From the NCBI GenBank assembly GCA_016865865.1, contig VGOC01000005.1, positions 1,194-65,193 of the forward strand: a stretch of DNA of 64,000 bases, written 5' to 3'. The position numbers and the translations under genes were made by a program. The DNA is from Chloroflexota bacterium (GTDB lineage: Bacteria > Chloroflexota > Anaerolineae > Anaerolineales > UBA11858). Under the pieces are notes generated by a model, which worked only from the letters and a program-made list of their open reading frames with translations, ran no database searches and had not been told where the DNA came from. This document shows positions 4,274-53,363 of this stretch, one piece after another (within the stretch, counting starts at the first letter, position 1; each line of letters begins with the position of its first letter).

Positions 4274-4281
4274 GAAATCAA

Positions 4282-5172: not shown

Positions 5173-6459
5173 ATGACGGATTTAGCGATAAGAGTAAATG
5201 ACCTCGGCAAACAATACCGCATTGGGTTGGCTCCTGAGCGATATAAGACGCTGCGCGATTCTATCGTTGATGTGGTGACCTGGCCGCTTCAACGAATCCG
5301 CCGTGGGCTGGCTCCCTCGGGTGAGGACTATGCTGATACCATCTGGGCATTGCGCGATGTATCCTTCGAGGTCGAGCAAGGGAAAGTATTGGGGGTGATT
5401 GGGCGGAATGGGGCGGGCAAGAGCACGCTGCTCAAGATATTGTCGCGCGTTACCGAACCCACCGAAGGAGAAGTCGAGATCCGCGGCCGGGTTGGATCGC
5501 TCCTGGAAGTCGGCACAGGCTTTCACCCGGAATTGACTGGGCGCGAAAATATCTATCTCAATGGCGCTATTCTAGGGATGAAGCGCTCCGAGATAGACGG
5601 CAAATTCGATGAGATCGTTGACTTCTCCGGCGTCGAGCAATTTATAGATACCCCGGTCAAACGTTACTCTAGCGGCATGTATCTACGATTGGCTTTTGCG
5701 GTTGCAGCGCATTTGGAACCGGAAATCCTGGTGGTGGACGAGGTGCTGGCCGTCGGCGATGCCGAGTTTCAACGAAAATGCCTGGGGAAAATGAGCGACG
5801 TCGCTCAGGAAGGCCGCACAGTGCTATTCGTTAGCCATGATATGTCCGCGATTCTGCGCCTTACCGAAGAGGCCATCGTGCTGGATGATGGTCAACTGGT
5901 TTACCGCGCCCCTACCGTCGCGGCGGTGGATTATTATATGGTATCCGGATTCTCCGAGGCGGGGGAGCGCGTCTGGGATGATGATGAGATTCCAGAATCG
6001 GCTGCGCCCTTCCACCCCCTGGCTATGCGCGTGTGTAACTCGAATGGGCAGAATGTTGACGTAGTTCGCTCGACTGAGCCGATCAGCTTAGAGGTCGAGT
6101 ATCAACTGGCAGAACCCATCCACGGGCTGCGCGTCGGCCTCTACCTGATGAGCGCGCGCGGCGAATATGTCCTGACATCCTTCGATACCGATGAGCCGGA
6201 GCAGTATAACAACTATGGCGTCCGCCCTGCCGGTCACTTCCTCAGCCGTTGTACGATCCCGCCGGATTTGTTGAATGAAGGCCGATATACAGTGGGGGTG
6301 AACGCCAGCTCCTTCCGGGTGAAACGCTATTTCATGGATGAACGGGCTTTGACCTTCACAGTTGACGGCATGGGCGCGCCAGGGAAACAGTGGGCCGAAA
6401 CGCGCATGGGGCTGGTGAGGCCGCGCTTGAATTGGCAGATCGAGGCGGTAGAGAAATGA
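5173..6459 (+). CDS. wzt: Polysaccharide ABC exporter ATPase with a C-terminal Wzt_C-like carbohydrate-binding extension
   Basis: Walker [15 protein letters not shown], signature YSSGM and Walker [13 protein letters not shown]. About 170 extra C-terminal residues follow (..[30 protein letters not shown]..), which look beta-rich. Confidence 0.88.
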
Positions 6460-8081
6460 CGATGATTGGAAGCGAATCCTTGAAGAAGATTCTTGGCGAG
6501 TTTCCTGTTACCGCAGATCTCTACTGGCGGATTATGCAGCAGGCTGATCCTCCAGTGGGGGGGTACTTGCTTGACGACGTTCGGAAGCATCTGCCAACCT
6601 GGCTGGATCAAGCGCGGGCGGCAGAGGTGAAAAGCAATCACCCCAAACGCGTGCTGGTTTTCAGTGTGCTTCGATATTGGCTGGAACATAGCCTGCTCAT
6701 GAGCCTGGCACTGGTGGCTTTTGGACATGAGGTCACGCTGGCCTATTTACCGTATGCTCACTGGAAAAGACCCATCAATCGCTTCGACCTGCGCCGTCAG
6801 GATCTTTATATCAAAAGCATCATCAAGCAAATCGAACCCTTCGTAAGATTGGTCTCGATGCTGGATGCTCCGAAAGCCGACAGGCTGCCTGAAGCGATTA
6901 GCGACCAAATGGCGGCGGCAGCTTTCCGCGATACTCAATACAGTATGCTGCGGGAAGACATCGACACCGATGGCGAGATCTACCGATTGCGCCAGGAGCG
7001 CAACAACGATTATGCCCTGCGAATGTTGGCCTGGATGCAAAATGAACGCCCTGACGTGGTAGTCGTCCCGAATGGCAGCATCCTCGAATTTGGTATTACC
7101 TATCGTCTTGCCCGTTACCTAAACATCCCCGTGACGACCTACGAGTTTGGGGAACAAAACCACCGCATGTGGATGGCACAGAATAATGATGTGATGCGCC
7201 AGGACACCTCGGATTTATGGAATGCGCGCGGCGAGATACCATTGACTGACGTAGAAAAGGAACTGATCTATAATCTATTTTCGTCTCGCCAGGGAGCCAG
7301 TCTGTGGCATACCTTTGCCCGGCGATGGCAGGATGCGCCCAAAATCGGCGGCAGCGCAATACGGCAGGAGCTGGGCCTCGATTTGCGGCCTCTGGCATTA
7401 ATCCCGGCCAATGTGTTAGGCGATAGTCTGGTCCTCGGCCGGCAGCTATTTAGCGAGAGCAATACGGAGTGGTTGAAGCGCACAGTCGAATTCTTTATCG
7501 AGCATCCTGAGGCCCAGTTGGTTATTCGTGTTCACCCGGGAGAGCGCATAGGTTGGGGGTCCTCGGTCTATGAAATCTTAGTGCAACATTTTCAGGAATT
7601 CCCAGAAAATATCCACCTGCTCCCTGCGGAATCGAGCGTCAATACGTATGATTTGGTGGATGCCGCTGACTTTGGGCTGGTCTTCACCACAACCACCGGG
7701 ATGGAGATGGCCATGATCGGAAAACCAGTAATCGTTACGGGCCACACGCACTATCGCGGCAAGGGGTTCACGATTGATCCGAATACCTGGAAAGAGTACT
7801 TCGAAGCCTTGAAACAGGTGCTGTATGACCCCAAGGCTCACACTTTATCTGAAGGTCAGATCGAATTATCCTGGCGCTATGCTTATCGCTTTTTCTTCGA
7901 ATATCCTCAGCCTTTCCCCTGGCGAGTCCCCTATCTTTGGGAGAGCTTGAAGGAATGGAGCATGGCGCGGGTTCTCAGCCCAGAAGGACAGGCCCAATTT
8001 GGGAATACTTTTCGTTATCTGGTTGGCGAGCCGATTGATTGGGCTCGAAGTTATGTAGAAGGTCGGCTGACGAATGAGTGA
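6456..8081 (+). CDS. Capsule_synth-like (KpsC/KpsS-type) GT-B protein; candidate CMP-ulosonic-acid transferase
   Basis: Motifs [23 protein letters not shown] and [25 protein letters not shown] match the Q.xDS / HP / G.EA.l.gkPv pattern of KpsS/KpsC. The ATG at 6456 overlaps the wzt stop (ATGA). Confidence 0.6.
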
Positions 8082-9078
8082 TCATTTACGAGACCATCCT
8101 GTATTTTTATGTGGTTATCCCAGGTCTGGCACCTCCTTAGTGCGCGCGCTATTAGATGGCCATCCTCAGCTTGTCGTATATCCGTTCGAGACTTTCTTTT
8201 TCCGCGGCTTTCTCCCCCAGGCAGCCAGGCGTGACATGGATGGCAAGGTGGAGTTGGCCTCGAGGTACCTCCTTCAATTCGTTGGACTTCGCCACGAGAT
8301 GGAGGAGGATTATGAGCATTTCCATCCCAATGAGGATACCGTCCATGATTTTGCAAAAATGTGTCTCTCCATTCAGCGGCAAATTGCTGCCCATGGCTGC
8401 CGGCACGATGGGGACCTGCTCGCGGCATCAGTCCTGGCTTTTGGAGAAGTGTATGGCTTTCTCCATGAAAATACCCGTTGCTGGCTAGAGAAATCTGTTC
8501 ATAATGAATTCTTTGCAGAACAAATCTTTGGGTGGTGGCCTGAGGCTCGGTGCATTCATCTCATGCGAGATCCGCGCGATGTTTATTCATCGTATCATCC
8601 CAGGCGACAGAAGGTTCTACCCCGCCTGTTTTCGCTCCGTTGGGCGAGAAGCGCCCAAAAAGGGCTGGATAATCAACGGGTTTATGGGGAAGATCATTAT
8701 TACCTGATCGAATACGAACAACTGGCGCAAGACCCTGAAGCAGCTCTTCAGGGGTTGACCCATTTCTTAGGGATCGAAGATCATCCGATTTTACGAATTC
8801 CGTCTTCTATGGGGATTCCATGGGAAGGCAATTCGACCTTCGCAGACAAGTTCGCTGGTATTAGCGCCAGGCCTGTCGAAAGGTGGAGAAAAGAACTGGC
8901 TCGACATGATGTGCAGATCATCGAGCAGATTGCCAGACAACCCATGACAAAGTTGGGTTATCGGGTAGAAAATAAATGGTCATTGTCGACAAGTCTACGG
9001 ATACTGCGCGGGTTTCTCAGTTATTATCGTGATGCAATCGAAAAGATAGACCCGGCGGATATAGATGGTGTTGAATAG
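8074..9078 (+). CDS. Sulfotransferase
   Basis: A 5'-PSB-like loop FLCGYPRSGTSLV and a 3'-PB-like LMRDPRDVYSS. The start overlaps the upstream stop. Confidence 0.8.
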   Translation: MSDHLRDHPVFLCGYPRSGTSLVRALLDGHPQLVVYPFETFFFRGFLPQAARRDMDGKVELASRYLLQFVGLRHEMEEDYEHFHPNEDTVHDFAKMCLSIQRQIAAHGCRHDGDLLAASVLAFGEVYGFLHENTRCWLEKSVHNEFFAEQIFGWWPEARCIHLMRDPRDVYSSYHPRRQKVLPRLFSLRWARSAQKGLDNQRVYGEDHYYLIEYEQLAQDPEAALQGLTHFLGIEDHPILRIPSSMGIPWEGNSTFADKFAGISARPVERWRKELARHDVQIIEQIARQPMTKLGYRVENKWSLSTSLRILRGFLSYYRDAIEKIDPADIDGVE

Positions 9079-9093
9079 GTATCGGATGTAGTA

Positions 9094-9996
9094 ATGGTGG
9101 CCATGGCCGATATAAAACAGCATGTGCGAGAGTTCTACGACCAGGTTGGTTGGCTGGAAGTCAGCGAGGGAGTTTATCAAAACGCTCGCTATGAGGATTT
9201 ACGGCCAGTTTCACGTGAATATATTCATCGTTGCCATCTACGTGTGAGCCGCCACATCAAACCCGAGGGGCGCTACTTCCTCGACGCAGGTTCTGGGCCG
9301 ATTCAATACCCGGAGTATTTGGAGTATTCCAAGGGATACAATTACCGGGTCTGCGCTGATATTTCCTATGTAGCCCTGCAGGAAGCCAGGAAAAGGGTTG
9401 GCGATCACGGCCTGTTTGTGGTCGCCGATGTAGCTAATTTGCCCTTCGCTCCTGAAACTTTCGAGGGCGTTGTCTCATTGCATACGATCCATCATCTGCC
9501 GCAAGAAGAGCATGTTCAGGCATACAGAGAGTTATACCGGGTATTGTCCCCCGGATGTTCGGCGTCGGTTGTCAACGGTTGGGGCGATGCGCTGATCCCG
9601 CGCCTGTTATCGAATCCCATGCGCTGGACGAACCGCTTGCTGGGGGTTGTCAGGCGTTTATTGGGCATTACGCCCACAGAACATCCTGCAAAACCTGTCA
9701 GTATGTCTGATGATAACAAACCCACAAGCACCTTTGTGCGCAAAGATAGCGCCGATTGGTTGAAGGAGCAGCTCGCTACGTTGATGCCAATCGAAATCGT
9801 TGTCTGGCGGGGGATCAGTGTAAAGCACTTGCGCACCTTCATCCATCAGGGATGGGGTGGATGCTATGTGTTACGGTTTTTATTCTGGCTAGAGGAACGT
9901 TTTCCTCATTTCTTCGGAGAGAAAGGTCAATACCCCTTGGTTGTGATCCGAAAAATGAGCTACACAGATGAGTTCACTGAAAGAACTCATGAATGA
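9094..9996 (+). CDS. Class I SAM-dependent methyltransferase
   Basis: Motif I FLDAGSGPIQ, plus ..VADVANLPFAPETFEGVVSLHTIHHL (Methyltransf_11-like). Confidence 0.8.
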   Translation: MVAMADIKQHVREFYDQVGWLEVSEGVYQNARYEDLRPVSREYIHRCHLRVSRHIKPEGRYFLDAGSGPIQYPEYLEYSKGYNYRVCADISYVALQEARKRVGDHGLFVVADVANLPFAPETFEGVVSLHTIHHLPQEEHVQAYRELYRVLSPGCSASVVNGWGDALIPRLLSNPMRWTNRLLGVVRRLLGITPTEHPAKPVSMSDDNKPTSTFVRKDSADWLKEQLATLMPIEIVVWRGISVKHLRTFIHQGWGGCYVLRFLFWLEERFPHFFGEKGQYPLVVIRKMSYTDEFTERTHE

Positions 9997-11019
9997 ATGG
10001 AGTTGCATATGAATTGGAAAGATAAAACTATTCTCGTCACAGGCGGAACCGGGTCCTTTGGAAAAGCATTTTCCAGGATTATGTTAGAGGAATACCAGCC
10101 GGCTAAGTTGATTGTATTTAGCCGGGATGAACTCAAGCAGCACGAAATGAGGGTTTCTGGTTTCGACTACCCCAATATCCGATATTTTATCGGCGACGTT
10201 CGCGATCTACCACGATTGAAGCGCGCCATGCAGGGTGTGGATATCGTCGTCCATGCAGCCGCTCTGAAACAGGTGCCAGCCTGTGAATATAACCCCATGG
10301 AGGCAGTAAAGACCAACATCCTTGGCAGCAGCAACGTGGTTGATGCTGCTCTAGATACTGGGGTTAAAAAAGTTATGGCCTTGAGCACCGACAAGGCCGT
10401 CAGCCCGGTCAATTTGTATGGGGCCACGAAGCTCGCTGCCGAAAAACTAGTGATTCAAAGTAATGCCTACGCAGGAAAGTACGAAACACGTCTGAGTTGT
10501 GTGCGCTATGGCAATGTTGTTGGCAGTCGGGGAAGCGTTGTCCCGGTTTTTCTGAGTCAACGGGCCAATAACGGCAAACTTACCATAACCGACAAACGGA
10601 TGACGCGCTTCTGGCTATCGCTTGAGCAAGGAGTCAGGTTCGTGATCAAGAGCATTGAACACATGTTAGGTGGGGAAGTATTCATTCCTAAGATACCTAG
10701 CATGAAAGTGGTTGATCTGGCTAAAGTCATCGCCCCTGATGCAGAGATAGACATCATCGGTATTCGGCCAGGCGAGAAATTGCATGAGATGCTGATCTCG
10801 CGGGATGAATCTCGCTCGACTATCGAAATGGATGATATGTTCGTCGTTCAGCCGGTCGAAGCCTTCTGGTTTGGTGGAAAATGGAGTGAGAAGGGAAAAC
10901 CTGTTCCTGATGGTTTCCGCTATTCCAGCGCCGAGAATCCAGAGTGGCTTAATGTCGAACAGATCAGAGAGATGATCAAACCTTTCGAGGAGGCGTTTGC
11001 GCAAGGAAAGCTAGCTTAA
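9997..11019 (+). CDS. UDP-GlcNAc 4,6-dehydratase of the PseB/FnlA/CapE type
   Basis: Has KTILVTGGTGSFGKAF, LIVFSRDELKQHEM, GDVRD and NLYGATKLAAEKL. ATG at 10009 is an alternative start. Confidence 0.85.
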   Translation: MELHMNWKDKTILVTGGTGSFGKAFSRIMLEEYQPAKLIVFSRDELKQHEMRVSGFDYPNIRYFIGDVRDLPRLKRAMQGVDIVVHAAALKQVPACEYNPMEAVKTNILGSSNVVDAALDTGVKKVMALSTDKAVSPVNLYGATKLAAEKLVIQSNAYAGKYETRLSCVRYGNVVGSRGSVVPVFLSQRANNGKLTITDKRMTRFWLSLEQGVRFVIKSIEHMLGGEVFIPKIPSMKVVDLAKVIAPDAEIDIIGIRPGEKLHEMLISRDESRSTIEMDDMFVVQPVEAFWFGGKWSEKGKPVPDGFRYSSAENPEWLNVEQIREMIKPFEEAFAQGKLA

Positions 11020-11108
11020 GTATGTTTGCCTTGTATACCTTGCTTACCTGCAGGCTCGATGTGACCTCTGGTTGAGTGAATTGGGTAAATAGTGAATACA
11101 AGGTAAAG

Positions 11109-12029
11109 ATGATGCGAATACTGATAACAGGTACAGGCGGCCTTTTGGGAAGCAACCTCGCTTTAGAAGCCGCCAGCCGCCACACAGTTTTCGGGGTGGA
11201 TAGAAGTTGTCCTCAGAAAACGACTGCTTTCACCCCTATGGTGGCCGACTTGCTAGACCCGGGCGTGGTGGAACGTATCCTGGATGATACTCAACCCGAT
11301 TGGGTGATCCATTGCGCTGCTCAGGCGAACGTGGATGCCTGTGAGCATGATCCAGAGAATGCCCGGAAATTGAATACAGAACTGCCGCGAAAACTGGCGC
11401 ATCATGTCGCCAGGGGCGGAGCGCGCATGTTGCATGTATCCACGGATGCGGTTTTCGATGGACAGAAGGGTGAATATGGCGAGGAAGATCCTCCAAATCC
11501 CCTCAATATTTATGCGCAAACAAAATTAGCTGGGGAATATGGAGTTCTCGAAACATCGCTCGATGCCATCGTAGCCCGGATAAATATCTTTGGGTGGAGT
11601 CCGTCAGGCAGGCGTAGCTTAGCTGAATTTTTCTATAACAACCTGGAAGCCGGTAACCCGATCAAGGGCTTCGTGGATGTTTTATTCTGCCCCTTGTTAG
11701 TGAATGATATAGCCGACCTGTTTCTAAAGATGCTAGATAGGGGATTGAGCGGGTTATATCATGTGGTCAGCAGCGAGAGCATCAGTAAATATGATTTCGG
11801 TGTTGCTATTGCGAGAAGATTCGGCTATGACCCTGATCTCATTACGCCAGTTTCTGTTAGCCAGGCTGGTCTTAAAGCGATCCGCTCTACCAACCTCACC
11901 CTGCGCGTGGATAAACTCATCCACGATTTGGGGGTAGTTCCTCCGGGTTTGTCCCCAGGGATAGATCGGTTTTACACGTTTTATCAACAGGGCTATCCAC
12001 AAATGATACGAACCTTGTGTGCAGAATAA
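11109..12029 (+). CDS. RmlD-substrate-binding-domain reductase (dTDP-4-dehydrorhamnose reductase / FnlB/WbjC-like)
   Basis: Has MMRILITGTGGLLGSNL and YAQTKLAGE. The ATG at 11109 is preferred over GTG at 11076. Confidence 0.75.
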   Translation: MMRILITGTGGLLGSNLALEAASRHTVFGVDRSCPQKTTAFTPMVADLLDPGVVERILDDTQPDWVIHCAAQANVDACEHDPENARKLNTELPRKLAHHVARGGARMLHVSTDAVFDGQKGEYGEEDPPNPLNIYAQTKLAGEYGVLETSLDAIVARINIFGWSPSGRRSLAEFFYNNLEAGNPIKGFVDVLFCPLLVNDIADLFLKMLDRGLSGLYHVVSSESISKYDFGVAIARRFGYDPDLITPVSVSQAGLKAIRSTNLTLRVDKLIHDLGVVPPGLSPGIDRFYTFYQQGYPQMIRTLCAE

Positions 12030-12048
12030 GAATGCAGAGGTCAAAGAT

Positions 12049-13131
12049 ATGAATATTCCCTCCCCTGAAATTACCATAGCTGACCGGAAAGTCGGCCTCA
12101 ATCACCCCACCTATTTCATCGCTGACATCGCCGCCAACCACGATGGCGATCTGGAGCGCGCCAGGTTTCTCATCCGGCTGGCGAAAGAAGCCGGCGCCGA
12201 GGCTGCCAAATTCCAGAATTTCCGCGCCCCCAATATCGTCTCCGATTATGGGTTCAAGTCGTTGGGCGGCCAGCTCTCTCATCAGGCCAGTTGGAAGAAA
12301 AGCGTGTTCGAGGTGTATAGAGATGCCTCGATCCCCTTCGAGTGGACGCCGATCCTCAAAGAGACATGTGACGATGTGGGAATTCACTATTTCTCCTCCC
12401 CATACGACTACGACGCCATTGATATGCTGGCCCCATATGTGCCAGCCTATAAAGCCGGCTCTGGGTTGATGTCGTGGCCTGATGGGCTGGTGCGCATGGC
12501 AAAACTCGGCAAACCCTTGCTGATCGCAACGGGCGCGGCGGATATCAGCGATGTGGTGCGCGCCATGCGGGCGGTGAGGCCGGTCAACGATCAAATTGTA
12601 CTCATGCAGTGCAACACCAATTACACCGCTGCCGACTCGAATTACGATCACCTCAATCTCAATGTGCTCAGGACATATGCCGCCATGTTCCCGGATGTAG
12701 TGTTGGGACTCTCGGATCACACCCACAGCCCGGCGCCGATCGTCGGCGCGATAGCCTTGGGGGCGCGCGTCATCGAACGGCACTTCACCGACGATAACGA
12801 CCGAGAAGGCCCCGACCACAAATTTGCCATGAACCCCGAGAATTGGGCTGAGATGGTTCATCAAGTCCGCACACTCGAGCGCGCATTGGGATCATTCGAC
12901 AAATTCGTCACCGGCAGCGAGCAAGAAACTTACGTGCTCCAACGCCGATGTCTGCGGGCTGCCCGGGAGATCAAGGCTGGCGAAACCATCGCTGAGGATA
13001 TGGTCGAACCCCTGCGCCCTGCCTCTCCAGGCGCGATCATGTCCTGGGAGCTGGACAGACTCGTTGGAAGGAAGGCCCTGGTGGACATGCCGTATGGGAT
13101 GGATATGCGGTGGGAGAATATTGGGGCATGA
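12049..13131 (+). CDS. NeuB/PseI/LegI-family ulosonic (nonulosonic) acid synthase with a SAF domain
   Basis: Has PTYFIADIAANHDGDLERARFLIRLAKEAGAEAAKFQNF, VIERHFT and a C-terminal REIKAGETI (SAF). The ATG at 12049 has a gagg RBS. Confidence 0.85.
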   Translation: MNIPSPEITIADRKVGLNHPTYFIADIAANHDGDLERARFLIRLAKEAGAEAAKFQNFRAPNIVSDYGFKSLGGQLSHQASWKKSVFEVYRDASIPFEWTPILKETCDDVGIHYFSSPYDYDAIDMLAPYVPAYKAGSGLMSWPDGLVRMAKLGKPLLIATGAADISDVVRAMRAVRPVNDQIVLMQCNTNYTAADSNYDHLNLNVLRTYAAMFPDVVLGLSDHTHSPAPIVGAIALGARVIERHFTDDNDREGPDHKFAMNPENWAEMVHQVRTLERALGSFDKFVTGSEQETYVLQRRCLRAAREIKAGETIAEDMVEPLRPASPGAIMSWELDRLVGRKALVDMPYGMDMRWENIGA

Positions 13132-13203
13132 AACGTAAAAAGGTAAACCGTAGAAAGTGATTTCAGTTTCTCGATTACATCTCACGTTTTACGTTTATTC
13201 CAT

Positions 13204-14361: not shown

Positions 14362-14389
14362 TATTTTTAGCCATCGCATGTATGGAGGC

Positions 14390-14502
14390 AACTACTCAGC
14401 CAAACGGAGAAATTCCCGAAAAAAGGGTGTGCGTGGGGGTGCTGCGCACCCCCACGCACACCCTTTTTTCGGGCTAATCCGTTCGATGACTGAGCAGTTA
14501 CG
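14390..14502. mobile_element. 113-nt MITE-like palindromic element, copy A
   Basis: Identical to 61536-61648 except for the 3-nt loop. It has a perfect 28-bp stem, cccgaaaaaagggtgtgcgtgggggtgc / gcacccccacgcacacccttttttcggg, and imperfect outer inverted repeats aact.ctcag. Confidence 0.75.
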
Positions 14503-14516
14503 TATGGAGTGCCGTT

Positions 14517-15287: not shown

Positions 15288-15303
15288 CAAACTAACCAAC
15301 CCC

Positions 15304-19276: not shown

Positions 19277-19279
19277 AAA

Positions 19280-24496: not shown

Positions 24497-24520
24497 CCAG
24501 TTATCATAGATACGACTACT

Positions 24521-25372: not shown

Positions 25373-25384
25373 ATCGCGGACGAC

Positions 25385-25444: not shown

Positions 25445-25542
25445 CTGAAATCAAAGAGCCAGATTTATACCACAGACAGCGGACGACCGACCGTAAAGCA
25501 AAACCGCCGTCTTCCGTCAGTGGTCCGCGGTCGCTTCCATTT

Positions 25543-28024: not shown

Positions 28025-28027
28025 AAG

Positions 28028-30603: not shown

Positions 30604-30720
30604 GGTTTACACTTCAAGTCATTGATATCGTTGTACTGAGTATTATACGGCTGTTGCGGATTGTCCGAAAGGGGCGCCCATAGAAATTTCGAACTTTGCA
30701 GAAACAAAAGAACAGGTAGC

Positions 30721-32329: not shown

Positions 32330-32403
32330 GTTGGCGTAAACCATGTTATGATTTCGCCCCGCCGGCTTTATGGTCGGCGTTTTCGTTGTCACAAAATAAT
32401 TCT

Positions 32404-34229
<1,826 letters not shown>

Positions 34230-34240
34230 AAGGCAAACGA

Positions 34241-35062
34241 ATGTCCGATCTCCCTGATCTTTTCGATCTGTCATGCCGCGTGGCAATCGTCACCGGCGGG
34301 GCAGGGTTATTAGGGGCTGAGTTCTGCCAAACCCTGGCGTATGCGGGCGCAGCCGTTGTAATTGCAGATATAGATGAGGAAGTCGCCTCGAATTTGGCGG
34401 CTTCTCTGTCTCGAGGTGGATTCAGCGCCCTGGGCGTGAGGGCGGACGTGACCAGAGTTGATTCTGTTCGAGAAATGGTGGACTCAGCCCTGAAGAATTA
34501 CGACCGCCTCGACATCCTGGTCAACAGCGCTGCCCTGGATCCTAAGTTCGACCCACGATCGAAAAGAGCCCATTCCGGCGCTTTCGAAGACTATCCTCTC
34601 GATCTATGGCAGCAAGCCCTGGATGTCAATCTCACCGGGATGTTCCTGTGTTGTCAGGCCGCGGTGCAGCCCATGCTCGAACAGGAAAGCGGAGTGATTA
34701 TCAATATCGCTTCGATGTACGGCGTGGCTGCCCCCGACCAGCGTTTGTACCAGCGTGAAGGGCAGCCTCCTCAATACAAGCCGGTTTACTACACCGTCAC
34801 CAAAGCCGGGGTGCTGGGCATGACCAAATATCTGGCCGCCTATTACGCCGGAAAGAACATTCGTGTAAACGCGCTGACACCTGGGGGTGTGTTCAACGAG
34901 CATAGCGCAGAGTTTGTCGAGGCCTATTCTGCCCGCGCGGTGATAGGCCGCATGGCTAAAAAAGACGAGATGAACGGTGCCTTGCTCTTCCTGGCCTCCG
35001 ATGCCTCGAAGTACATGACCGGCGCCAATTTGATCGTCGACGGCGGATGGACAACCTGGTGA
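34241..35062 (+). CDS. Classical SDR-family oxidoreductase
   Basis: Has VAIVTGGAGLLGAEF, NSAA and YTVTKAG. Confidence 0.82.
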   Translation: MSDLPDLFDLSCRVAIVTGGAGLLGAEFCQTLAYAGAAVVIADIDEEVASNLAASLSRGGFSALGVRADVTRVDSVREMVDSALKNYDRLDILVNSAALDPKFDPRSKRAHSGAFEDYPLDLWQQALDVNLTGMFLCCQAAVQPMLEQESGVIINIASMYGVAAPDQRLYQREGQPPQYKPVYYTVTKAGVLGMTKYLAAYYAGKNIRVNALTPGGVFNEHSAEFVEAYSARAVIGRMAKKDEMNGALLFLASDASKYMTGANLIVDGGWTTW

Positions 35063-35067
35063 CTCCG

Positions 35068-35823
35068 ATGACCGAAGTCCTCGCCATTATCCCCGCCCGC
35101 GGCGGATCGAAATCTATCCCTCGTAAAAACATCCTCGACTTTGCCGGGCATCCGCTGATCGCTTACAGCATTGCTGCTGGGCTGGCCGCTGAAACGGTCA
35201 CGCGGGTGATCGTCTCCACCGATGATGAAGAGATCGCCGAGATCTCGCGTCGCTATGGGGCTGAAACCCCCTTCACTCGTCCCGAGAAGCACGCCCGGGA
35301 CCAGACCCCGGACCTGCCTGTCTTCCGGCACGCTCTGGAATGGTTGCAAACCAACGAAGGCTATCGGCCGGATATCGTCGTCCAATTACGCCCCACCTCC
35401 CCCTTTCGGCGAGTTCAGCACATTGACCAGGCTGTAGAGACTCTCGTCGAGCGCTCCGAAGCGGATGCCATTCGCACGGTCTGTATCCCTTTTCAAAATC
35501 CCTTCAAGATGTGGCGCATCGCTCCGGATGGTTTCATGCGGCCGATTGGCCTGGAGTTAGGAGTCGCTCACGAGCCTCATAACCAGCTCCGCCAGGCCTT
35601 ACCGGAGATTTACTGGCAAACCGGCTATGTGGACGCAGCCTGGGCAGATACGATCATGCTAAAAAATTCGATGACAGGCGACCGTATTTTGCCTCTCATC
35701 ATTGATCCCAGCGACTGGGTGGATATCGATTCGCCGGATGACTGGAAGAGGGCGGAGCGGTTGTTAGAGAGTGGGGAGATCACCTTGGATGATTTAGGAT
35801 TTCACTTGGAAGTAAACGAGTAG
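35068..35823 (+). CDS. Acylneuraminate (CMP-nonulosonate) cytidylyltransferase family
   Basis: Has MTEVLAIIPARGGSKSIPRKNILDFAGHPLIAYSI and VQLRPTSPFR. ATG at 35047 is an alternative start. Confidence 0.85.
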   Translation: MTEVLAIIPARGGSKSIPRKNILDFAGHPLIAYSIAAGLAAETVTRVIVSTDDEEIAEISRRYGAETPFTRPEKHARDQTPDLPVFRHALEWLQTNEGYRPDIVVQLRPTSPFRRVQHIDQAVETLVERSEADAIRTVCIPFQNPFKMWRIAPDGFMRPIGLELGVAHEPHNQLRQALPEIYWQTGYVDAAWADTIMLKNSMTGDRILPLIIDPSDWVDIDSPDDWKRAERLLESGEITLDDLGFHLEVNE

Positions 35824-35885
35824 ACAAGGTATACGAGTATTACCTGTCCACCTTGTGTACATGTACCTGTTACGGAGAATAAACT

Positions 35886-37775
35886 ATGCCTGAGATAAAA
35901 ATCGGCGACCGCCTGATAGGCGACGGACACCCAACTTATATCATTGCCGAGATCGGCGTCAATCACAATGGTATCCTGGAATACGCTTTCGAGTTGATTG
36001 ATGCTTCGGTGGATGCCGGCGCGGATGCAGTCAAATTCCAGAAACGAAACTTGGAGAAGCTCTACCCCAAGAAATACCTCGAAAATGCCAATATCGGCGA
36101 GAAAAACCTCAACTACCTGTTGCCCATTTTGCAACAGGTCGAACTTTCGGACGAAGATTATCACAAAATCGTCGCCTATTGTCAGAAGAAGGGGATTACT
36201 TTCCTGTGCTCGGCTTTCGATGAAGATAGCGCCGATTTCATCGAATCCCTGGGGGTTCCGGCCTTCAAAGTTGCCTCGGCGGATATGATCAATTTGCCAT
36301 TGCTTGACTATCTGATTGGGAAAGGCAAACCGATGATCGTGTCCACTGGCATGTCCCGTATGGAGGAGGTCGAAACCACAGTAGCCTTTCTCAAGGAGCG
36401 TCATGCTGAGTTCGCCTTGTTGCATTGTAATAGCGCCTACCCTGCGGCTTTCGCTGACATCAATTTGCGCTTTATGGAACGTCTGCGAGAGTTTGGGGTG
36501 CCGATAGGCTACTCAGGTCATGAGCGCGGGATCGCGGTCTCGACCGTCGCCGCGGCGCTGGGTGCTAGCATCATCGAACGGCATATCACCCTCGACCGCA
36601 CCATGGATGGCCCCGATCACGCTTCGAGCCTGGAACCGCATGGCTTCAAGAAAATGGTGCGCGATATCCGACAGGTGACCCTGGCTTTGGGAAGTGGGGA
36701 GGAGAAGTACTTCACGATGGGTGAAATCCTCAATCGGGAAGTCCTGGCCAAAAGCCTGGTGGCGACGCGGCGCATCGAACCTGGCGAGGAGATCACCCGC
36801 GAGATGGTCACTGTCAAAGGTCCTGGGCAGGGACTCTCCCCGCAGCGATATACCGATCTCATTGGTCGTGTGGCTGAACGCGTGATCGAAGAAGACGAAC
36901 CTTTTCTGCCCGTTGATTTGGGGCGCAGAGTCACGCTGGATGTGGAGCATACTCTGCCGATGGAATGGGGCTTTGTCGTCCGGTTCAACGACTTCGAGAA
37001 CATGCTGAAATATAACCCGCTGCTGTTGGAATTCCATTTCACCGATAAAGACCTGGATGAGCCTTACCGTGGCGAGGATTTGGATATTCAATTAGTCATC
37101 CATGCCCCAGAATTTTGGTCGAATCATCTGGTAGATTTGTGCACCTTCGATGATGATCACCGCCGGGCTTCGGTTCGACTCTTGCAGAAAGCCATCAACG
37201 TCAGCCGGGTTATGGCCCCACATTTCGCTGGCGTCCCGAAGGTGGTCGTCCACCCTGGGGCGGCCAGCATAGATAGCCCAATGATTGACCGTCGAGGCCT
37301 GTATGACAACCTCAAACGCTCAGTCGAAGAACTCGATTTCGATGGCGTGGAGTTGCTGATCGAAAACCTGCCCCCCCATCCCTGGTATTTTGGCGGTCAG
37401 TGGTTGACCAATGCTTTTATGGATACCTATGAAATCCGCGAATTCCTGGATTCGATGGGGATGATGACTTGTTATGACACCTCCCATCACAAATTGTATT
37501 GCAACTGGGCGAACGTTGATTTCTACGAGCAAGTCGGAGTCATTCTGCCTTATATTTCTCATTTGCATCTATCCGATGCCTCCGGCCTGGATGGGGAGGG
37601 GCTGCAGATTGGCCAGGGAAATATTGACTGGGTCGAATTCTTCAAGGTCGCCAAGGATTATCATGGCACCATGATCCCCGAAATCTGGCAGGGGCATCAG
37701 CGCGGCGGCGAAGGCTTTATTGTCGCCATCAACCGTCTCTCGGAGGCTTACTTCGAAGCGGTAGGAGATGCCTGA
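35886..37775 (+). CDS. Fusion protein: NeuB-type ulosonic acid synthase (with SAF domain) plus a xylose-isomerase-like TIM-barrel domain
   Basis: The N-terminal half has PTYIIAEIGVNHNGILEYAFELIDASVDAGADAVKFQKR, IIERHITLDRTMDGPDHASSLEP and RRIEPGEEIT. The C-terminal half has VIHAPEF, VVHPG, LIENL, CYDTSH and HLHLSD, the AP_endonuc_2/TIM pattern. Confidence 0.8.
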   Translation: MPEIKIGDRLIGDGHPTYIIAEIGVNHNGILEYAFELIDASVDAGADAVKFQKRNLEKLYPKKYLENANIGEKNLNYLLPILQQVELSDEDYHKIVAYCQKKGITFLCSAFDEDSADFIESLGVPAFKVASADMINLPLLDYLIGKGKPMIVSTGMSRMEEVETTVAFLKERHAEFALLHCNSAYPAAFADINLRFMERLREFGVPIGYSGHERGIAVSTVAAALGASIIERHITLDRTMDGPDHASSLEPHGFKKMVRDIRQVTLALGSGEEKYFTMGEILNREVLAKSLVATRRIEPGEEITREMVTVKGPGQGLSPQRYTDLIGRVAERVIEEDEPFLPVDLGRRVTLDVEHTLPMEWGFVVRFNDFENMLKYNPLLLEFHFTDKDLDEPYRGEDLDIQLVIHAPEFWSNHLVDLCTFDDDHRRASVRLLQKAINVSRVMAPHFAGVPKVVVHPGAASIDSPMIDRRGLYDNLKRSVEELDFDGVELLIENLPPHPWYFGGQWLTNAFMDTYEIREFLDSMGMMTCYDTSHHKLYCNWANVDFYEQVGVILPYISHLHLSDASGLDGEGLQIGQGNIDWVEFFKVAKDYHGTMIPEIWQGHQRGGEGFIVAINRLSEAYFEAVGDA

Positions 37776-39354
37776 TATCCCAGTGCGGCATTCGAAAGCA
37801 AATAGGATGGTATTCGAAAACTGGAAGCGCTTGCTTCCAGTTTTGTTGCCGCTATCTCTCGTGATCGCCGCCGGGATCTGGGGTGTGGATTTTGGCAATC
37901 ATTGGGATGAGGACAAACTCATCCCTCAGTTGCGTGACACAATCAGAACAGGCGTGTTTTTGCCTGGATGGTACCGTTATCCTTCGATTACATATTGGCT
38001 GAATCTATTAGGATTAGCACCATATATCGTCGGTATAGCTGCGAAAGGCGGGGCAGAACCAAGCGATCTTCGAGCTTATCTGATTGATGTTACCGGTGGA
38101 GACATCTTTCGCCTTCAAGCGCGCAAGATATTCATCGTCGTATCAGCTCTGGCGATTTTGTGGGTGTACTTGTTCATCCTTGTAGACAGAAAGCGCAGTT
38201 GGATGGAGTCGCTTTTGGGGGCTTTGTTCTTGGGATTTTCATGGGAAGTGGGGTATCACATGCGCTGGATTGCTCCTGACGGCGTCTTGATGCAGTTCGG
38301 CGCCTTGACCATTTTTTTTGTCTTTCTTGCTCTTCAGGCAGATCGAAGGAAATATTGGCTTTGGGCAGCGGCTGTAGCGGCAGGATTGGGGATGGGGTCG
38401 AAATATCCGGGGGGACTGCTTCTCGTCCCTGTGCTGATGGCTGCATTCAGGCTGAGGGTTCGATCTGGTTGGGGCATCCTTCTCGAAGTGCTGTTCGCCT
38501 TTGGAGTCAGTTTTGTTCTTTCTACCCCAGGCGTCTTCTTGCAGCCGAAAACTTTTTTCTCCGATGTCCTCTCGGAAGTCTCTCATTATCAGACCGGGCA
38601 TTATGGGTATGTGGTATCTCCATGGGAACACTTGGGATTGATGTCCACTTACTTCTCTCAGGTGACATTTTCCCACTACCGGGGTATTGCTTTGGTGCTT
38701 TTTCTGTTTTCTCTGGCGGGCATCTTCGCGCTGACGAGAGAATCCTGGCAGGATACAGTGTTGTTTCTGAGCTTTCCGCTCTTGTACGTGGTTTTCTTCA
38801 GCTTTCAGCGCGTGATGATCGTGCGAAATCTGTTGGTGCTGATCCCGTTTGGGGCAATTCTATCCGCCCGAGGTGTTTGTTATTTGTGGGATAAGATGCA
38901 TCATTGGCTGCCAAAGGCTGCTTTTGGATTGCTGATTCCGGCGATTGTCATCGTCAATGGCGTTTGGTTGTTTCGCGCTGCGCATTCGATCACCCTGCGA
39001 GGGACAGATGATTTCACTCGCCAATTGATCGCCTATTTCGACGAGAACCCACAGATGCGGTTTCTCCTATCTGATAAGGTGATGGACGACATCGAGTCTT
39101 TGGGAGAGCCAACTCCATCGAATGTGATCGGGGATGGGCTAGAGGGTGTTGATATGGTCGTTTTCTACGCTTCAGAGGGGATGGAGAAGCCTGCCGATTG
39201 GCCGCGAAATCGCCCAGGGATAGCAACGAAGTTCTTTGGCCCATGGGAAGTCAACTTTGACTACTATCCCACCTGGGCAGGCGATGATCGAGTATTGGTG
39301 ATGCCATTCGAGAAGGCTCGAGAGATGGGGATCAAAGCGCTCACAGATGAATGA
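37768..39354 (+). CDS. GT-C-like (ArnT/PMT_2-like) polytopic membrane glycosyltransferase
   Basis: 528 aa with more than 10 TM spans, an N-terminal loop DFGNHWDEDK and a soluble C-terminal domain of about 110 aa. Confidence 0.6.
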   Translation: MPDIPVRHSKANRMVFENWKRLLPVLLPLSLVIAAGIWGVDFGNHWDEDKLIPQLRDTIRTGVFLPGWYRYPSITYWLNLLGLAPYIVGIAAKGGAEPSDLRAYLIDVTGGDIFRLQARKIFIVVSALAILWVYLFILVDRKRSWMESLLGALFLGFSWEVGYHMRWIAPDGVLMQFGALTIFFVFLALQADRRKYWLWAAAVAAGLGMGSKYPGGLLLVPVLMAAFRLRVRSGWGILLEVLFAFGVSFVLSTPGVFLQPKTFFSDVLSEVSHYQTGHYGYVVSPWEHLGLMSTYFSQVTFSHYRGIALVLFLFSLAGIFALTRESWQDTVLFLSFPLLYVVFFSFQRVMIVRNLLVLIPFGAILSARGVCYLWDKMHHWLPKAAFGLLIPAIVIVNGVWLFRAAHSITLRGTDDFTRQLIAYFDENPQMRFLLSDKVMDDIESLGEPTPSNVIGDGLEGVDMVVFYASEGMEKPADWPRNRPGIATKFFGPWEVNFDYYPTWAGDDRVLVMPFEKAREMGIKALTDE

Positions 39355-39368
39355 TCCTGGCCGATATT

Positions 39369-39440
39369 CAATACTTCACGAAATCACGATCTACGACCCG
39401 TCCTCGGGTCGCCCGGGGACGGGCTTTCGATCTTTTTCGT
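39369..39440. repeat. Nested-palindrome REP/terminator-like element, copy 2 (core inverted relative to copy 1)
   Basis: caatacttcacgaaatcacgatctacgacccgtcctcgggtcgcccggggacgggctttcgatctttttcgt. A 14-bp GC-rich stem is followed by a T-rich tract, 15 nt after the upstream stop. Confidence 0.75.
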
Positions 39441-39517
39441 TATCCACTGATATTGGATAATGATTCACCGCAGAGCCGCGGAGTGCGCAGAGAAAAAATG
39501 GGTAGGGCAACATCAGA

Positions 39518-41173
39518 ATGTCTTCGATAGCTGTTGTTGAAAAGATAAAGTCGCGTGTAATGACACGGGCTTTGCAATATAAGTCTGATTTGCAGATTTC
39601 ACGCCTTTCGCGGGATGTGGCGCGTTTTAGCAACCTGGATTCTCAGCAGAAACCGGTTGCATTTTTCAATGTCTCCTCACGTCTGGGGGGCATAAGCCAG
39701 AATGCTGCCTTCACTCTCCTGACATCGTGGGGATTGCAGTTCGCAGGCTCGCCGGTCGTCCATTTTGCTTGCCGCGCCGGGATGAGCCGCTGTGTGTTGG
39801 GGATGAACCCTGATGACCACACTGCATCCCCGCCATGTGAAACTTGTGTCGCCCAATCGAAGAAGTTGCTGGCTTCAACCCCAGCCCATTGGTTCGAATT
39901 CATTCCAAATGAAGCACTTGCCAATGAGATCTATTCTCTCGACCTCGAAGAACTGAGCAATTATCAATTTACAATTGACAATTCACAATTATCAATTCAT
40001 GGCAGGATCATTCCTCTTGGAGAACTGACCATCACTTCCCTCCGCTGGGCCCTACGCCAGCATCACCTTCCCGACGACGAAGCCGTTCGTCACCAACTGC
40101 GTGAATATATCCTTTCTGCCTATCGTGTGGCTGAGACATTCGATTCCTTTCTGACCGGAGTCGAGCCAGCCGTCGTTGTCCTCTTCAACGGATTGCAGTT
40201 CCCCGAAGCCACAGCCCGTTGGGTGACCCGCCATCTCGGCATCCGCACGATCACACATGAGGTCAGCTTTCAGCCCTTTTCGGCCTTTTTCACCGAGGGG
40301 GATGCCACCGCTTACCCCATCGAGATACCAGACGAATTCGAATTATCCCCTTCGCAGAACGCTCGCCTGGAAGCCTATCTCAGTCACCGGTTCCAGGGCG
40401 AGTTCACTATGGCTGGCATCCGTTTCTGGCCTGAGATGAGCGGGTTAGACAAAGCCTTTTTACAATTCGCAGCCCAATTCGAGCAGATCGTGGCGGTGTT
40501 CACAAATGTGGTTTTCGACACCAGCCAGCTCCACGCCAACACGGTTTTCCCGCAGATGTTCGCCTGGTTGGACTTGATCCTCGAAATCATCAAATCGCAT
40601 CCTGAAACGCTTTTTGTGATTCGCGCTCATCCTGACGAAAAACGCCCCGGCACTCGCAAGCAGAGCCGCGAAAGCGTCAGTCATTGGGTGGCGCACAATG
40701 GCGTTGATCAGCTCCCCAATGTGATCTTCATCGATTCGGGCGAATATATCAGCTCCTATGATCTGATCCGCCGGGCAAAGTTCGTGATGGTATATAACTC
40801 TTCCATTGGCCTGGAAGCGACGCTACTAGATACGCCCGTCTTGTGCGGTGGGAAAGCCCGCTTCACTCAATACCCTATCGTACACTTTCCGCAGACGCCA
40901 GCGGAATACCGACAAGTTGCTGAAGAATTTCTGGCTTCCGAAAAGTTGATCGTGCCAGAAGAGTTCGAACGCAATGCCAGACGGTTTTTGTATTATCAAC
41001 TTTTCCGCGTTTCTTTGCCTTTCGATGAATTCATCGAAGCTCATCCTATCCCAGGATATGTGCAGCTCAAACCCTTCTCCTGGCGCGATCTGCAACCCGA
41101 ACACTCGCCCACGTTGCGCGTCGTCGTGGATGGAATCCTCGATACTAAGCCCTTCGTTCTTTCGGATGAATAA
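39518..41173 (+). CDS. Capsule_synth-like (KpsC/KpsS-type) GT-B protein with an N-terminal Cys cluster
   Basis: Has VAVFTNVVFDTSQL, LFVIRAHPDEKR and VMVYNSSIGLEATLLDTPVLCGGKARF. The Cys cluster is CRAGMSRC...CETC. An in-frame 42-nt heptamer repeat lies at 39958-39999. Confidence 0.6.
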   Translation: MSSIAVVEKIKSRVMTRALQYKSDLQISRLSRDVARFSNLDSQQKPVAFFNVSSRLGGISQNAAFTLLTSWGLQFAGSPVVHFACRAGMSRCVLGMNPDDHTASPPCETCVAQSKKLLASTPAHWFEFIPNEALANEIYSLDLEELSNYQFTIDNSQLSIHGRIIPLGELTITSLRWALRQHHLPDDEAVRHQLREYILSAYRVAETFDSFLTGVEPAVVVLFNGLQFPEATARWVTRHLGIRTITHEVSFQPFSAFFTEGDATAYPIEIPDEFELSPSQNARLEAYLSHRFQGEFTMAGIRFWPEMSGLDKAFLQFAAQFEQIVAVFTNVVFDTSQLHANTVFPQMFAWLDLILEIIKSHPETLFVIRAHPDEKRPGTRKQSRESVSHWVAHNGVDQLPNVIFIDSGEYISSYDLIRRAKFVMVYNSSIGLEATLLDTPVLCGGKARFTQYPIVHFPQTPAEYRQVAEEFLASEKLIVPEEFERNARRFLYYQLFRVSLPFDEFIEAHPIPGYVQLKPFSWRDLQPEHSPTLRVVVDGILDTKPFVLSDE

Positions 41174-53360: not shown

Positions 53361-53363
53361 GTA

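Follow-up and report, generated by a model that had tools for sequence, protein, structure and literature searches.

Predicted retaining CMP-nonulosonate transferases of the KpsC/KpsS superfamily in a conserved surface-glycan cluster of Anaerolineales

Described ulosonate transferases and their likeness to P1 and P3

To our knowledge, few transferases of nonulosonic acids have been characterised. Newly characterised retaining ulosonate transferases have each founded a CAZy family of their own, namely GT99, GT107, GT118 and GT140. Here we describe two candidates for further enzymes of this kind, P1 (open reading frame (ORF) 6456-8081, 541 amino acids (aa)) and P3 (ORF 39518-41173, 551 aa), which are encoded together with a third protein, P2 (ORF 25543-26988, 481 aa), on a stretch of 64,000 nucleotides of contig VGOC01000005.1 (assembly GCA_016865865.1) from a Chloroflexota bacterium of the order Anaerolineales. 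This whole 64-kb stretch is called the window, and the genes discussed below lie on its plus strand unless stated otherwise. An earlier note had placed all three proteins, P2 less clearly, in the KpsS/KpsC family and had proposed that they use nonulosonic or other ulosonic acids activated with cytidine monophosphate (CMP) in place of Kdo (3-deoxy-D-manno-octulosonate). With a probability of about 0.65, P1 and P3 are soluble, cytoplasmic GT-B proteins of the KpsC/KpsS/WbbB superfamily that act as retaining transferases of CMP-nonulosonates supplied by adjacent gene modules.

The nearest of the described systems are KpsC (GT107) and KpsS, the beta-Kdo transferases of Escherichia coli group 2 capsules, which build the export-linked primer of these capsules (PMC12887879). 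They share with P1 and P3 the Pfam family PF05159, the best structural match, aligned Glu, Asp, His-Pro (HP) and G-x-E elements, and a position beside an ATP-binding cassette (ABC) exporter. P1 and P3 differ from KpsC, however, in being only ~14 % identical to it, in having ~200 extra N-terminal residues and, in P3, a cluster of four cysteines, and in carrying NxxxD rather than QxxxD. They are accompanied by NeuB modules, with no Kdo genes nearby, in a host without lipopolysaccharide (LPS), and the dual-module architecture and C-terminal membrane anchor of KpsC are not evident in them. The N-terminal GT99 module of WbbB (Raoultella/Klebsiella O12) resembles P1 and P3 in its retaining ulosonate fold, in the D-S/T dipeptide after the nucleophile and in its partner, a Wzt protein with a carbohydrate-binding module (CBM) that recognises the terminal residue (PMC11231755). 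WbbB carries a coiled-coil ruler and polymerising glycosyltransferases in the same polypeptide, whereas P1 and P3 stand alone (one distant relative is fused to a GT2 domain and a methyltransferase), and its Gln228 is replaced by Asn in P1 and P3, whose donor is presumably not Kdo.

Three further systems bear on the comparison. KpsS1 (GT118) and Gtr59 of Acinetobacter baumannii are, like P1 and P3, PF05159 proteins beside nonulosonate modules, and they move sugars of the pseudaminic (Pse), acinetaminic (Aci) or legionaminic (Leg) acid type. Transfer is biochemically proven for KpsS1, the retaining Pse5Ac7Ac transferase that founded GT118, according to Walklett 2024 as cited in PMC12887879, and is predicted for the others. 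Kenyon et al. 2015 had assigned Gtr59, KpsS1 and KpsS2 to Aci/Pse transfer and had found PF05159 proteins adjoining nonulosonate modules in Acinetobacter, E. coli, Photobacterium, Bacteroides and Sphingobium (PMC4487303). Because nonulosonate transfer by PF05159 proteins was already established through KpsS1 and through this association, known since 2015, P1 and P3 would not extend the donor range of the family, as had been supposed from the window alone. Compared by description, KpsS1, which shares ~30 % identity with E. coli KpsS, is much closer to that protein than P1 and P3 are, and it serves a Wzy-type capsule pathway of a Gram-negative host, whereas the cluster of P1 and P3 has an ABC transporter and belongs to Chloroflexota. 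The N-terminal module of KrkA (GT140) from E. coli K13 is a divergent retaining Kdo transferase of the same fold, with a Y-E base motif, matched by Y229-E230 in P1, and with QxxxD as its nucleophile motif (PMC12887879). GT140 is, however, reported to have no detectable sequence similarity to other families, and its base is supplied by another secondary-structure element, the Glu of P1 and P3 aligning instead with Glu66 of KpsC. Finally, Tanf_01245 and TFUB4_00887 of Tannerella forsythia, genetically proven Pse/Leg transferases, are TagB-like GT-B proteins with an HP motif that add a terminal nonulosonate to a surface glycan (PMC5420450). Their family, NF046086 (the BFO_1060 family), has a cut-off of 200 bits; P1, P2 and P3 reach 32.9, 30.5 and 44.1 bits and none is a member.

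Against this background, what appears to be new is a pair of deeply divergent clades, set apart from KpsC by their low identity, N-terminal extension and NxxxD signature, together with their occurrence in Archaea and in Chloroflexota, a group reported to lack LPS (PMC8871954), and with the order-wide cluster in which they lie. No literature was found on an order-wide cluster with 3'-phosphoadenosine 5'-phosphosulfate (PAPS) synthase, sulfotransferases, methyltransferases and three CTP_transf_3 proteins, and a literature search on nonulosonic acids in Chloroflexi or Anaerolineae gave nothing relevant.

Family, fold and catalytic residues of P1 and P3

Both proteins match Capsule_synth (PF05159) above its gathering cut-off of 20 bits, P1 with 32.4 bits (E 8.8e-8, aa 309-444) and P3 with 30.4 bits (E 3.5e-7, aa 325-450); the matches cover the C-terminal, nucleotide-binding half only. 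This profile search bears out the family assignment that had been made from sequence patterns. A PDB sequence search linked P1 to the solved structure of KpsC (6mgd, E 3e-5), and KpsC and KpsS of E. coli CFT073 matched P1 and P3 directly by tblastn (E ~4e-4). P1 and P3 are 24 % identical (E 1e-12), with 99 % probability over ~290 columns in a profile comparison, and by sequence they are paralogues, homologous to each other. Of the DS, HP and G-x-E patterns on which the earlier note relied, P1 carries all (N319-V-L-G-D323-S324, H360-P361 and G415-M-E417...G422-K-P-V), while P3 has the HP and G-x-E elements and a DT in place of DS (N330-V-V-F-D334-T335, H371-P372 and G431-L-E433...P-V); the motifs of both are invariant across 59 homologues of each family.

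AlphaFold2 models (pLDDT 86.5 for P1 and 91.3 for P3) were compared with known structures by Foldseek. For P3 the first five hits were KpsC entries (E 1e-9 to 6.5e-8, TMt ~0.52), with WbbB next at E 4e-7; for P1 the KpsC entries had the best TM-scores (0.50-0.55) at E ~1e-6. The models point to a modified GT-B fold resembling that of KpsC and WbbB, less clearly so for P1. The comparison with GT99 and GT107 proposed in the earlier note came out in favour of a very distant kinship, in the structural matches of P3 and in the alignment of catalytic residues with KpsC.

In KpsC, Glu66 has been assigned as the general base and Asp160 as the nucleophile, and a role has likewise been assigned to the histidine of the HP motif (PMC10148158, PMC9587256). 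Aligned by profile with E. coli KpsC (76 % probability, E 2e-5), the P3 family pairs E248 with Glu66, N330 and D334 with Q156 and D160, and H371-P372 with the HP motif; in the profile comparison of P1 with P3 the P1 equivalents are E230, N319/D323 and H360-P361. The Glu, Asp and His-Pro columns are invariant in a MAFFT alignment of 15 sequences, made up of P1, P3, ten distant relatives, E. coli KpsS and the two modules of KpsC (KpsC-N and KpsC-C). From these alignments, E230 of P1 and E248 of P3 would be equivalent to the general-base glutamate (KpsC E66, WbbB E158), D323 and D334 to the nucleophilic aspartate (KpsC D160, WbbB D232), and the histidines of H360-P361 and H371-P372 to the general acid. 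At the first motif position of the same alignment, all the Kdo enzymes (KpsS, KpsC-N and KpsC-C) have Gln and all 12 clade members have Asn, the signature of the clade being N-[VIL]-x-[WFG]-D-[ST]. The Gln of QxxxD in WbbB binds the C1 carboxylate of Kdo and has been called invariant among retaining Kdo transferases (PMC9587256). Because the Glu, Asp and His-Pro residues are invariant and this Gln is replaced by Asn, the clade seems to have kept the catalytic machinery while lacking one defining feature of the Kdo enzymes.

The homology, fold, catalytic residues and gene context of P1 and P3 are observed, whereas the donor, the acceptor and the stereochemistry of transfer, like the cap or primer role discussed below, are what we infer for them. 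Most likely, both would use the double-displacement, retaining mechanism of the KpsC/KpsS/WbbB superfamily, in which the HP histidine (H360 in P1, H371 in P3) would protonate the CMP leaving group, the aspartate of NxxxD (D323, D334) would form a covalent sugar-enzyme adduct and the glutamate of the N-terminal domain (E230, E248) would activate the acceptor hydroxyl.

No convincing transmembrane segments were found in P1, P2 or P3. The N-terminal domain of P3 carries an invariant CX6C...CX2C cluster (C85, C92, C107 and C110; window 39770-39850) that is absent from P1 and KpsC and probably binds a metal in a structural role. Upstream of P3, a scan for terminators gave no site on the plus strand. 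When the P3 profile was run with HMMER against 1.84 billion representative proteins, it matched 4611 clusters (counted at 50 % identity) at E <= 1e-3 and 364 at E <= 1e-30; the named members that were looked up, including ones from a marine euryarchaeote and from Candidatus Lindowbacteria, were labelled "hypothetical" or by an unrelated fused domain.

Gene neighbourhood, donor and competing explanations

Scans with Pfam and NCBIfam of all large plus-strand ORFs show that a single, very large locus for a surface glycan fills the window. Its products include GDP-mannose dehydratase and epimerases, many GT2 and GT4 glycosyltransferases, several methyltransferases, four PMT_2 (GT-C) proteins, at least five sulfotransferase domains, a PAPS synthase, two NeuB-type synthases, three CTP_transf_3 cytidylyltransferases and one PseB equivalog, together with a Wzm/Wzt ABC exporter, whose ATPase has a Wzt_C carbohydrate-binding domain, and a second ABC exporter at the 3' end. 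P1, P2 and P3 are all part of a single core cluster that is conserved across Anaerolineales. In compact genomes this core runs from MarR and an epimerase through Wzm, Wzt, P1, the methyltransferase MT1, PseB, an RmlD-like reductase, NeuB1 and a GT4 protein to CTP1, P2, GFO, SDR1, CTP2, NeuB2 and P3, and then through GT2, CTP3, a 2-hydroxyacid dehydrogenase, SDR2 and an MptE-like protein to PMT. The window holds an expanded version, to which further GT2, methyltransferase, sulfotransferase and PMT genes have been added, with NeuB2 and P3 separated by an inserted PMT_2 gene. In one related locus (L005, positions 5500-16300, metagenome-assembled genome (MAG) JBDRGC010000127), at least five toxin-antitoxin or related small modules (PemK, PIN, HicAB, BrnT/CopG and 23S_rRNA_IVP) are interleaved with the conserved genes, the gene order being kept.

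Named homologues of P1, P2 and P3 come only from Chloroflexota/Anaerolineae MAGs. Scanning 185,579 species genomes brought up 165 relatives of P1; the best 80 all belong to Anaerolineae, including Anaerolinea thermophila, Leptolinea and Candidatus Desulfolinea; the closest, from a Black Sea Anaerolineales MAG, is 85 % identical. Neighbours of P1 were counted by tblastn of the window proteins against the best 80 of these 165 loci, the denominators being the loci with enough flank. Wzt lies upstream of P1 in 68 of 69 loci (directly adjacent in 64), MT1 adjoins it in 62 of 72, PseB lies downstream in 60 of 62 and NeuB in 46 of 46, and a CTP_transf_3 gene lies within 10 kb in 29 of 41. The stop codon of Wzt overlaps the start of P1 as ATGA in the window, and the Wzt_C domain (PF14524) is seen in orthologous loci too. 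For P3, 80 loci from 545 confirmed metagenomic relatives and three further loci were used, with denominators restricted to loci with at least 3 kb upstream. A NeuB gene lies within 6 kb upstream in 44 of 46 loci and immediately adjacent in 42 of 46, and a CTP_transf_3 gene (CTP2) within 8 kb upstream in 42 of 46; in the window itself the PMT_2 gene at 37768-39354 intervenes between NeuB2 and P3. The arrangement known from GT118 and Gtr59, a PF05159 protein beside a nonulosonate module (PMC4487303), is therefore found for P1 in 46/46 and for P3 in 42-44/46 loci.

Other loci show the same company in other combinations. In an Anaerolineae locus (L070), the place of the PseB module after the P1 orthologue is taken by NeuB and a bona fide Epimerase_2 of the NeuC type. 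The euryarchaeal relative (L172) adjoins Epimerase_2, Polysacc_synt_2, NeuB, an ABC ATPase and an FkbM methyltransferase, and the Lindowbacteria-related one (L173) adjoins a CTP_transf_3::HAD fusion, GFO, AP_endonuc_2, SDR, NeuB and two sulfotransferases, which is the GFO/SDR/NeuB2 module of the window in unfused form; at L173 1605-4044 the NeuB and AP_endonuc_2 domains are separate genes, unlike window 35886-37775. In a fourth locus (L174, 8001-13037), a protein of 1678 aa joins GT2 and an FkbM methyltransferase to a P3-like NxxxD module at its C-terminus. Its neighbours are a complete PseB/PseC/PseF/PseG/PseI module with a formyltransferase and an ABC transporter; by analogy the architecture of this protein would be WbbB-like, with polymerase and terminator in one protein. 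That some relatives of P1 and P3 have a NeuC or PseG of their own beside them argues against a role as the missing UDP-sugar hydrolase and for a role downstream of CMP activation.

The presence in the window of three CTP_transf_3 genes (16620-17483, 35047-35823 and 43050-43718) and of NeuB-type synthases (two, at 12019-13131 and 35886-37775), both read from the sequence at the outset, was upheld, as was the absence of Kdo genes. E. coli KdsA and KpsF found no match in the window by six-frame tblastn (best E 0.47), nor any in 2.27 Mb of 169 related loci, and the matches of KdsB (KpsU) to the three CTP_transf_3 proteins of the window were confined to their N-terminal ~105 residues. For P1 and P3, the proposal of the earlier note that CMP-nonulosonates rather than CMP-Kdo are transferred is well supported by the KpsC-like residues, by adjacency to NeuB and CTP_transf_3 genes in some 46 loci each, by recurrence in three unrelated lineages and by the lack of detectable Kdo genes; P2 does not belong to the family.

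Ordinary beta-Kdo transfer, as by KpsC, KpsS and WbbB, with CMP-Kdo supplied by kds genes elsewhere in the genome, would fit the fact that, judged by Pfam, sequence and fold alike, the characterised enzymes nearest to P1 and P3 are Kdo transferases. The best NCBIfam matches of CTP1 are KdsB subfamily models as well, but these matches reach 85 bits against a cut-off of 193 and cover only the N-terminal part of the protein, and no homologue of KdsA or KpsF lies in the window or in the related loci. P1 and P3 almost always adjoin synthases of the NeuB rather than the KdsA type, the archaeal relatives also lie beside NeuB genes, the Gln described as invariant in all known retaining Kdo transferases (PMC9587256) is an invariant Asn in P1 and P3, and Chloroflexi are reported to be without LPS (PMC8871954). 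Kdo transfer is accordingly judged very improbable. Similarly low is the standing of a TagF-like phosphotransfer, in which P1 and P3 would use a polyol- or sugar-phosphate donor linked to cytidine diphosphate (CDP) or CMP to build a teichoic-acid-like polymer and not a glycosidic ulosonate linkage. The cluster does contain the TagB/TagF-like P2 and a TagGH-like ABC exporter, in a host without LPS, and P1, P2 and P3 share a weak similarity to the TagB-like family NF046086. That family, however, is itself the Pse/Leg transferase family of T. forsythia (PMC5420450); neither P1 nor P3 matches PF04464, the two align residue for residue with the nucleophile and base of KpsC, and no CDP-glycerol or CDP-ribitol synthase of the TagD/TarI type was seen in the domain scans of the window.

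PseG is a hydrolase with a GT-B fold, and P1 and P3 could in principle hydrolyse nucleotide sugars or act as hydrolysing 2-epimerases, filling the function of PseG or NeuC that the two NeuB pathways otherwise lack, with water resolving the covalent intermediate. Epimerases of UDP-GlcNAc (the 2-epimerases) give the best Foldseek E-values for P1 and rank high for P3, and neither NeuB module of the window has a PF02350 or PseG-type gene. The TM-scores to these epimerases, however, are ~0.3 against 0.5-0.57 to KpsC, P1 and P3 match Capsule_synth above threshold and not Epimerase_2 of Pfam, and orthologues or relatives coexist with bona fide Epimerase_2 or PseG in L070, L172 and L174. The HP motif is typical of enzymes that use cytidine nucleotides (PMC9587256, PMC5420450), and P1 is coupled to the exporter and not to pathway genes. 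This explanation is considered improbable; as the principal reading of P1 it was rejected because of the low TM-scores to epimerases and the NeuC and PseG genes beside its relatives.

Several observations weigh against nonulosonate transfer by P1 and P3. Their similarity to characterised enzymes is marginal, at ~14 % identity, and profiles of the P1 and P3 families run against PDB sequences gave only KpsC 6mgd, at E ~0.02. The lowest Foldseek E-values for P1 belong to the UDP-GlcNAc 2-epimerases, but with TM-scores of ~0.3. The carboxylate-binding Gln of WbbB is replaced by Asn, and the chemistry may differ. The search for Kdo genes covered only the window and the 2.27 Mb of related loci, and the NeuB modules of the window are without a recognisable PseG or NeuC hydrolase, which leaves a small probability for a biosynthetic role. 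Chain terminators described so far have a coiled-coil molecular ruler (PMC11231755), and the AlphaFold2 model of P1 has no extended coiled coil, its longest helix being of 24 residues (H174-197) inside the globular fold (read from the model, for P1 only, without a dedicated coiled-coil predictor); the lack of a ruler weakens the version in which P1 caps the polymer.

With nonulosonate transfer as the preferred reading, the donor would be a CMP-nonulosonic acid from the accompanying NeuB/CTP_transf_3 modules, more likely than CMP-Kdo, and for P3 it would most likely be the product of the SDR1-CTP2-NeuB2 module directly upstream. Pfam and NCBIfam scans found no DegT-type aminotransferase in the window, so the sugars are probably not classic 5,7-diamino Pse or Leg. 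PseB, the 4-reductase and NeuB1 would predict a 5-acetamido-7-hydroxy-9-deoxy, mono-amino nonulosonate. The GFO/SDR/TIM-barrel/NeuB2 module, whose Lindowbacteria-related version includes a haloacid dehalogenase (HAD) phosphatase, would point to a Kdn-like sugar. The fusion of NeuB2 to a TIM barrel, together with the Lindowbacteria-related fusion of CMP-synthetase to HAD phosphatase (Hydrolase_3), hints that the synthase may make a phosphorylated product, much as the Kdn-9-P pathway does. P1, translationally coupled to Wzm/Wzt, would probably add an ulosonic acid that marks the polymer for export, either as a non-reducing-end cap, as WbbB does, or as a lipid-proximal primer, as KpsS and KpsC do. 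Wzt proteins that bear a CBM bind the residue at the chain end, such as the beta-Kdo that WbbB adds (PMC11231755); with this precedent and that of KpsS and KpsC, the locking of P1 to a CBM-bearing Wzt makes it a plausible cap or primer enzyme.

P2, the wider locus and implications

P2, which had been put forward as a less clear member of the KpsS/KpsC family, turned out otherwise. It has no PF05159 match, nor has any of 45 homologues, and profile comparison with P1 and P3 gave a probability of 1.4-1.5 %, i.e., no detectable relationship. Its sole Pfam match is to Glyphos_transf (PF04464), at 16.1 bits and below the cut-off of 22.1; PF04464 is found in 28 of the 45 homologues at E <= 0.01 (best 3.5e-7), and several homologues are named as TagB/SpsB family by the Joint Genome Institute (JGI). 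The P2 family is even more conserved (65-83 % identity) and P2 carries R-L-H306-P307. A profile of the family run against PDB sequences found nothing meaningful, and the probability was 5 % in a comparison with the K2 capsule protein of E. coli CFT073, which is TagF-like. P2 would thus be a separate, TagB/TagF-like GT-B enzyme of the same cluster, which may also use a cytidine-nucleotide donor; a third cytidine-nucleotide-dependent transferase is, for this protein, a speculative reading of its sequence. The earlier note had regarded TagF-likeness as a refutation of its proposal. Because the T. forsythia transferases are themselves TagB-like and P1, P2 and P3 all match NF046086 weakly, the TagB/TagF-likeness of P2 is not such a refutation.

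It is possible, though doubtful, that P2 too is a nonulosonate transferase, of the TagB-like Tanf_01245/BFO_1060 type, in which case the pairs would be CTP1 with P2, CTP2 with P3 and CTP3 with the MptE-like protein, and P1 would supply an export-coupled cap or primer. In compact loci P2 directly follows CTP1 (in the order NeuB1-GT4-CTP1-P2), and the NF046086 match of 30.5 bits, the PF04464 matches of its homologues and H306-P307, in the light of the HP motif of the T. forsythia enzymes (PMC5420450), all favour such a role. All these scores, however, are far under the family cut-offs, and neither the profile search of PDB sequences nor the comparison with the E. coli K2 protein was significant.

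The genes around P1 begin with the permease of the glycan exporter, Wzm (4234-5139; ABC-2, PF01061 at 65.7 bits), which is kept upstream of P1 in related loci, and with the ATPase Wzt (5173-6459; PF00005, with a C-terminal Wzt_C, PF14524, at 34 bits against a cut-off of 30.4). P1 is followed by a sulfotransferase (8074-9078; PF13469, 97 bits) that is present only in loci of 69-85 % identity and is outside the core cluster, and by MT1 (9094-9996), a methyltransferase dependent on S-adenosylmethionine (PF08241). The P1-side nonulosonate module consists of an inverting, PseB-type UDP-GlcNAc 4,6-dehydratase (9997-11019; equivalog TIGR03589 at 493 bits, cut-off 407.75), a conserved RmlD-like 4-reductase (11076-12029; PF04321, 200 bits), the nonulosonate synthase NeuB1 (12019-13131; PF03102 at 212 bits, under the NeuB and PseI equivalog cut-offs), a conserved GT4 glycosyltransferase always adjoining NeuB1 (13204-14361; PF00534 and PF13692) and CTP1, a predicted CMP-ulosonate synthetase (16620-17483; PF02348, 119 bits). 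A conserved pair inside this module (14517-16620) encodes an AAC(3)-like N-acetyltransferase and a DUF4910/M28-like protein.

The second module, upstream of P3, has a GFO/IDH/MocA oxidoreductase (28028-29029), kept upstream of P3, a PAPS synthase in which adenosine triphosphate (ATP) sulfurylase is fused to adenosine phosphosulfate (APS) kinase (32502-34229; PF01747 and PF01583) and which is kept in most loci, the oxidoreductase SDR1 (34241-35062), assigned by domain scan and conserved context, CTP2, a PseF-like CMP-nonulosonate synthetase (35047-35823; PF02348, with TIGR03584 at 157 bits, below its cut-off of 205.7), and NeuB2, fused to a xylose-isomerase-like TIM barrel of the AP_endonuc_2 family (35886-37775; PF03102 at 285 bits, and PF01261). 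Downstream of P3 lies a sulfotransferase (41175-42071; PF00685) whose homologues follow P3 in many loci and which may sulfate the P3 product; its true start is uncertain, the mechanical ORF beginning at 40974. CTP3 (43050-43718; PF02348, 90.7 bits) is kept with a 2-hydroxyacid dehydrogenase, SDR2 and the MptE-like gene. The four genes (CTP3, a D-2-hydroxyacid dehydrogenase, SDR and the Maf-type, PF01973 MptE-like protein) form a conserved module at 43050-46399 without a NeuB of its own. The conserved MptE-like protein (45572-46399; PF01973 at 45 bits, cut-off 34.6) is presumably, from what is known of the Maf protein family, a further candidate consumer of a CMP-activated sugar.

Sulfotransferase or PAPS synthase genes lie at 8074-9078, 26981-28024, 32502-34229, 41175-42071 and 49537-51471, one sulfotransferase domain being fused to GT2. 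That at least five sulfotransferase domains are encoded alongside a bifunctional PAPS synthase implies heavy sulfation of the glycan, an unusual trait among bacteria. Two polytopic membrane proteins without a Pfam match, one of 742 aa with ~11 hydrophobic segments (21212-23440, plus strand) and one of 525 aa with ~7 (29026-30603, minus strand, the sole sizeable minus-strand gene of the locus), could be polymerase-, ligase- or flippase-like components. Membrane glycosyltransferases of the PMT_2/PMT type (GT-C, ArnT-like) are encoded at 37768-39354, 46409-47914, 48019-49530 and 58555-60696, and these four genes suggest extracytoplasmic glycosylation steps or transfer of glycan to protein or cell wall. 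The glycan locus is interrupted at 52632-54260 by a stretch of low GC content (0.47) that encodes a ThaI-type restriction endonuclease in truncated form (positions 1-120 of a profile of 203) and an N6/N4 DNA methylase; it has the look of a restriction-modification system that was inserted and is decaying. At 54739-63424 begins a second glycan system with an ABC transporter, including a protein of 1243 aa in which an N-terminal methyltransferase is followed by a GT4 region, as well as a PMT, an ABC-2 permease and an ATPase of the TagH/Wzt type (259 aa) that has no CBM.

A wider proposal can be made tentatively, and is unlikely to hold in full. Anaerolineales, and scattered Archaea and candidate phyla, may have a Kdo-independent counterpart of the capsule-linker and O12-terminator systems, in which a nonulosonate added by P1 and read by the CBM of Wzt would license export of a methylated, sulfated polymer. 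The change of Gln to Asn (QxxxD to NxxxD) might then be the switch from 8-carbon Kdo to 9-carbon donors, and a rule for donor class across the superfamily.

Sludge, sediments and anoxic waters are rich in Anaerolineales, about whose cell envelope little is understood. Should P1 and P3 indeed be retaining nonulosonate transferases, they would add one or two families to CAZy, in a superfamily of thousands of clusters whose looked-up members are uninformatively annotated. The Asn or Gln of the signature could be used to split Kdo from nonulosonate enzymes in genome annotation. For the order itself, a shared surface glycan would be defined that is sulfated, methylated and built with up to three CMP-activated acids.

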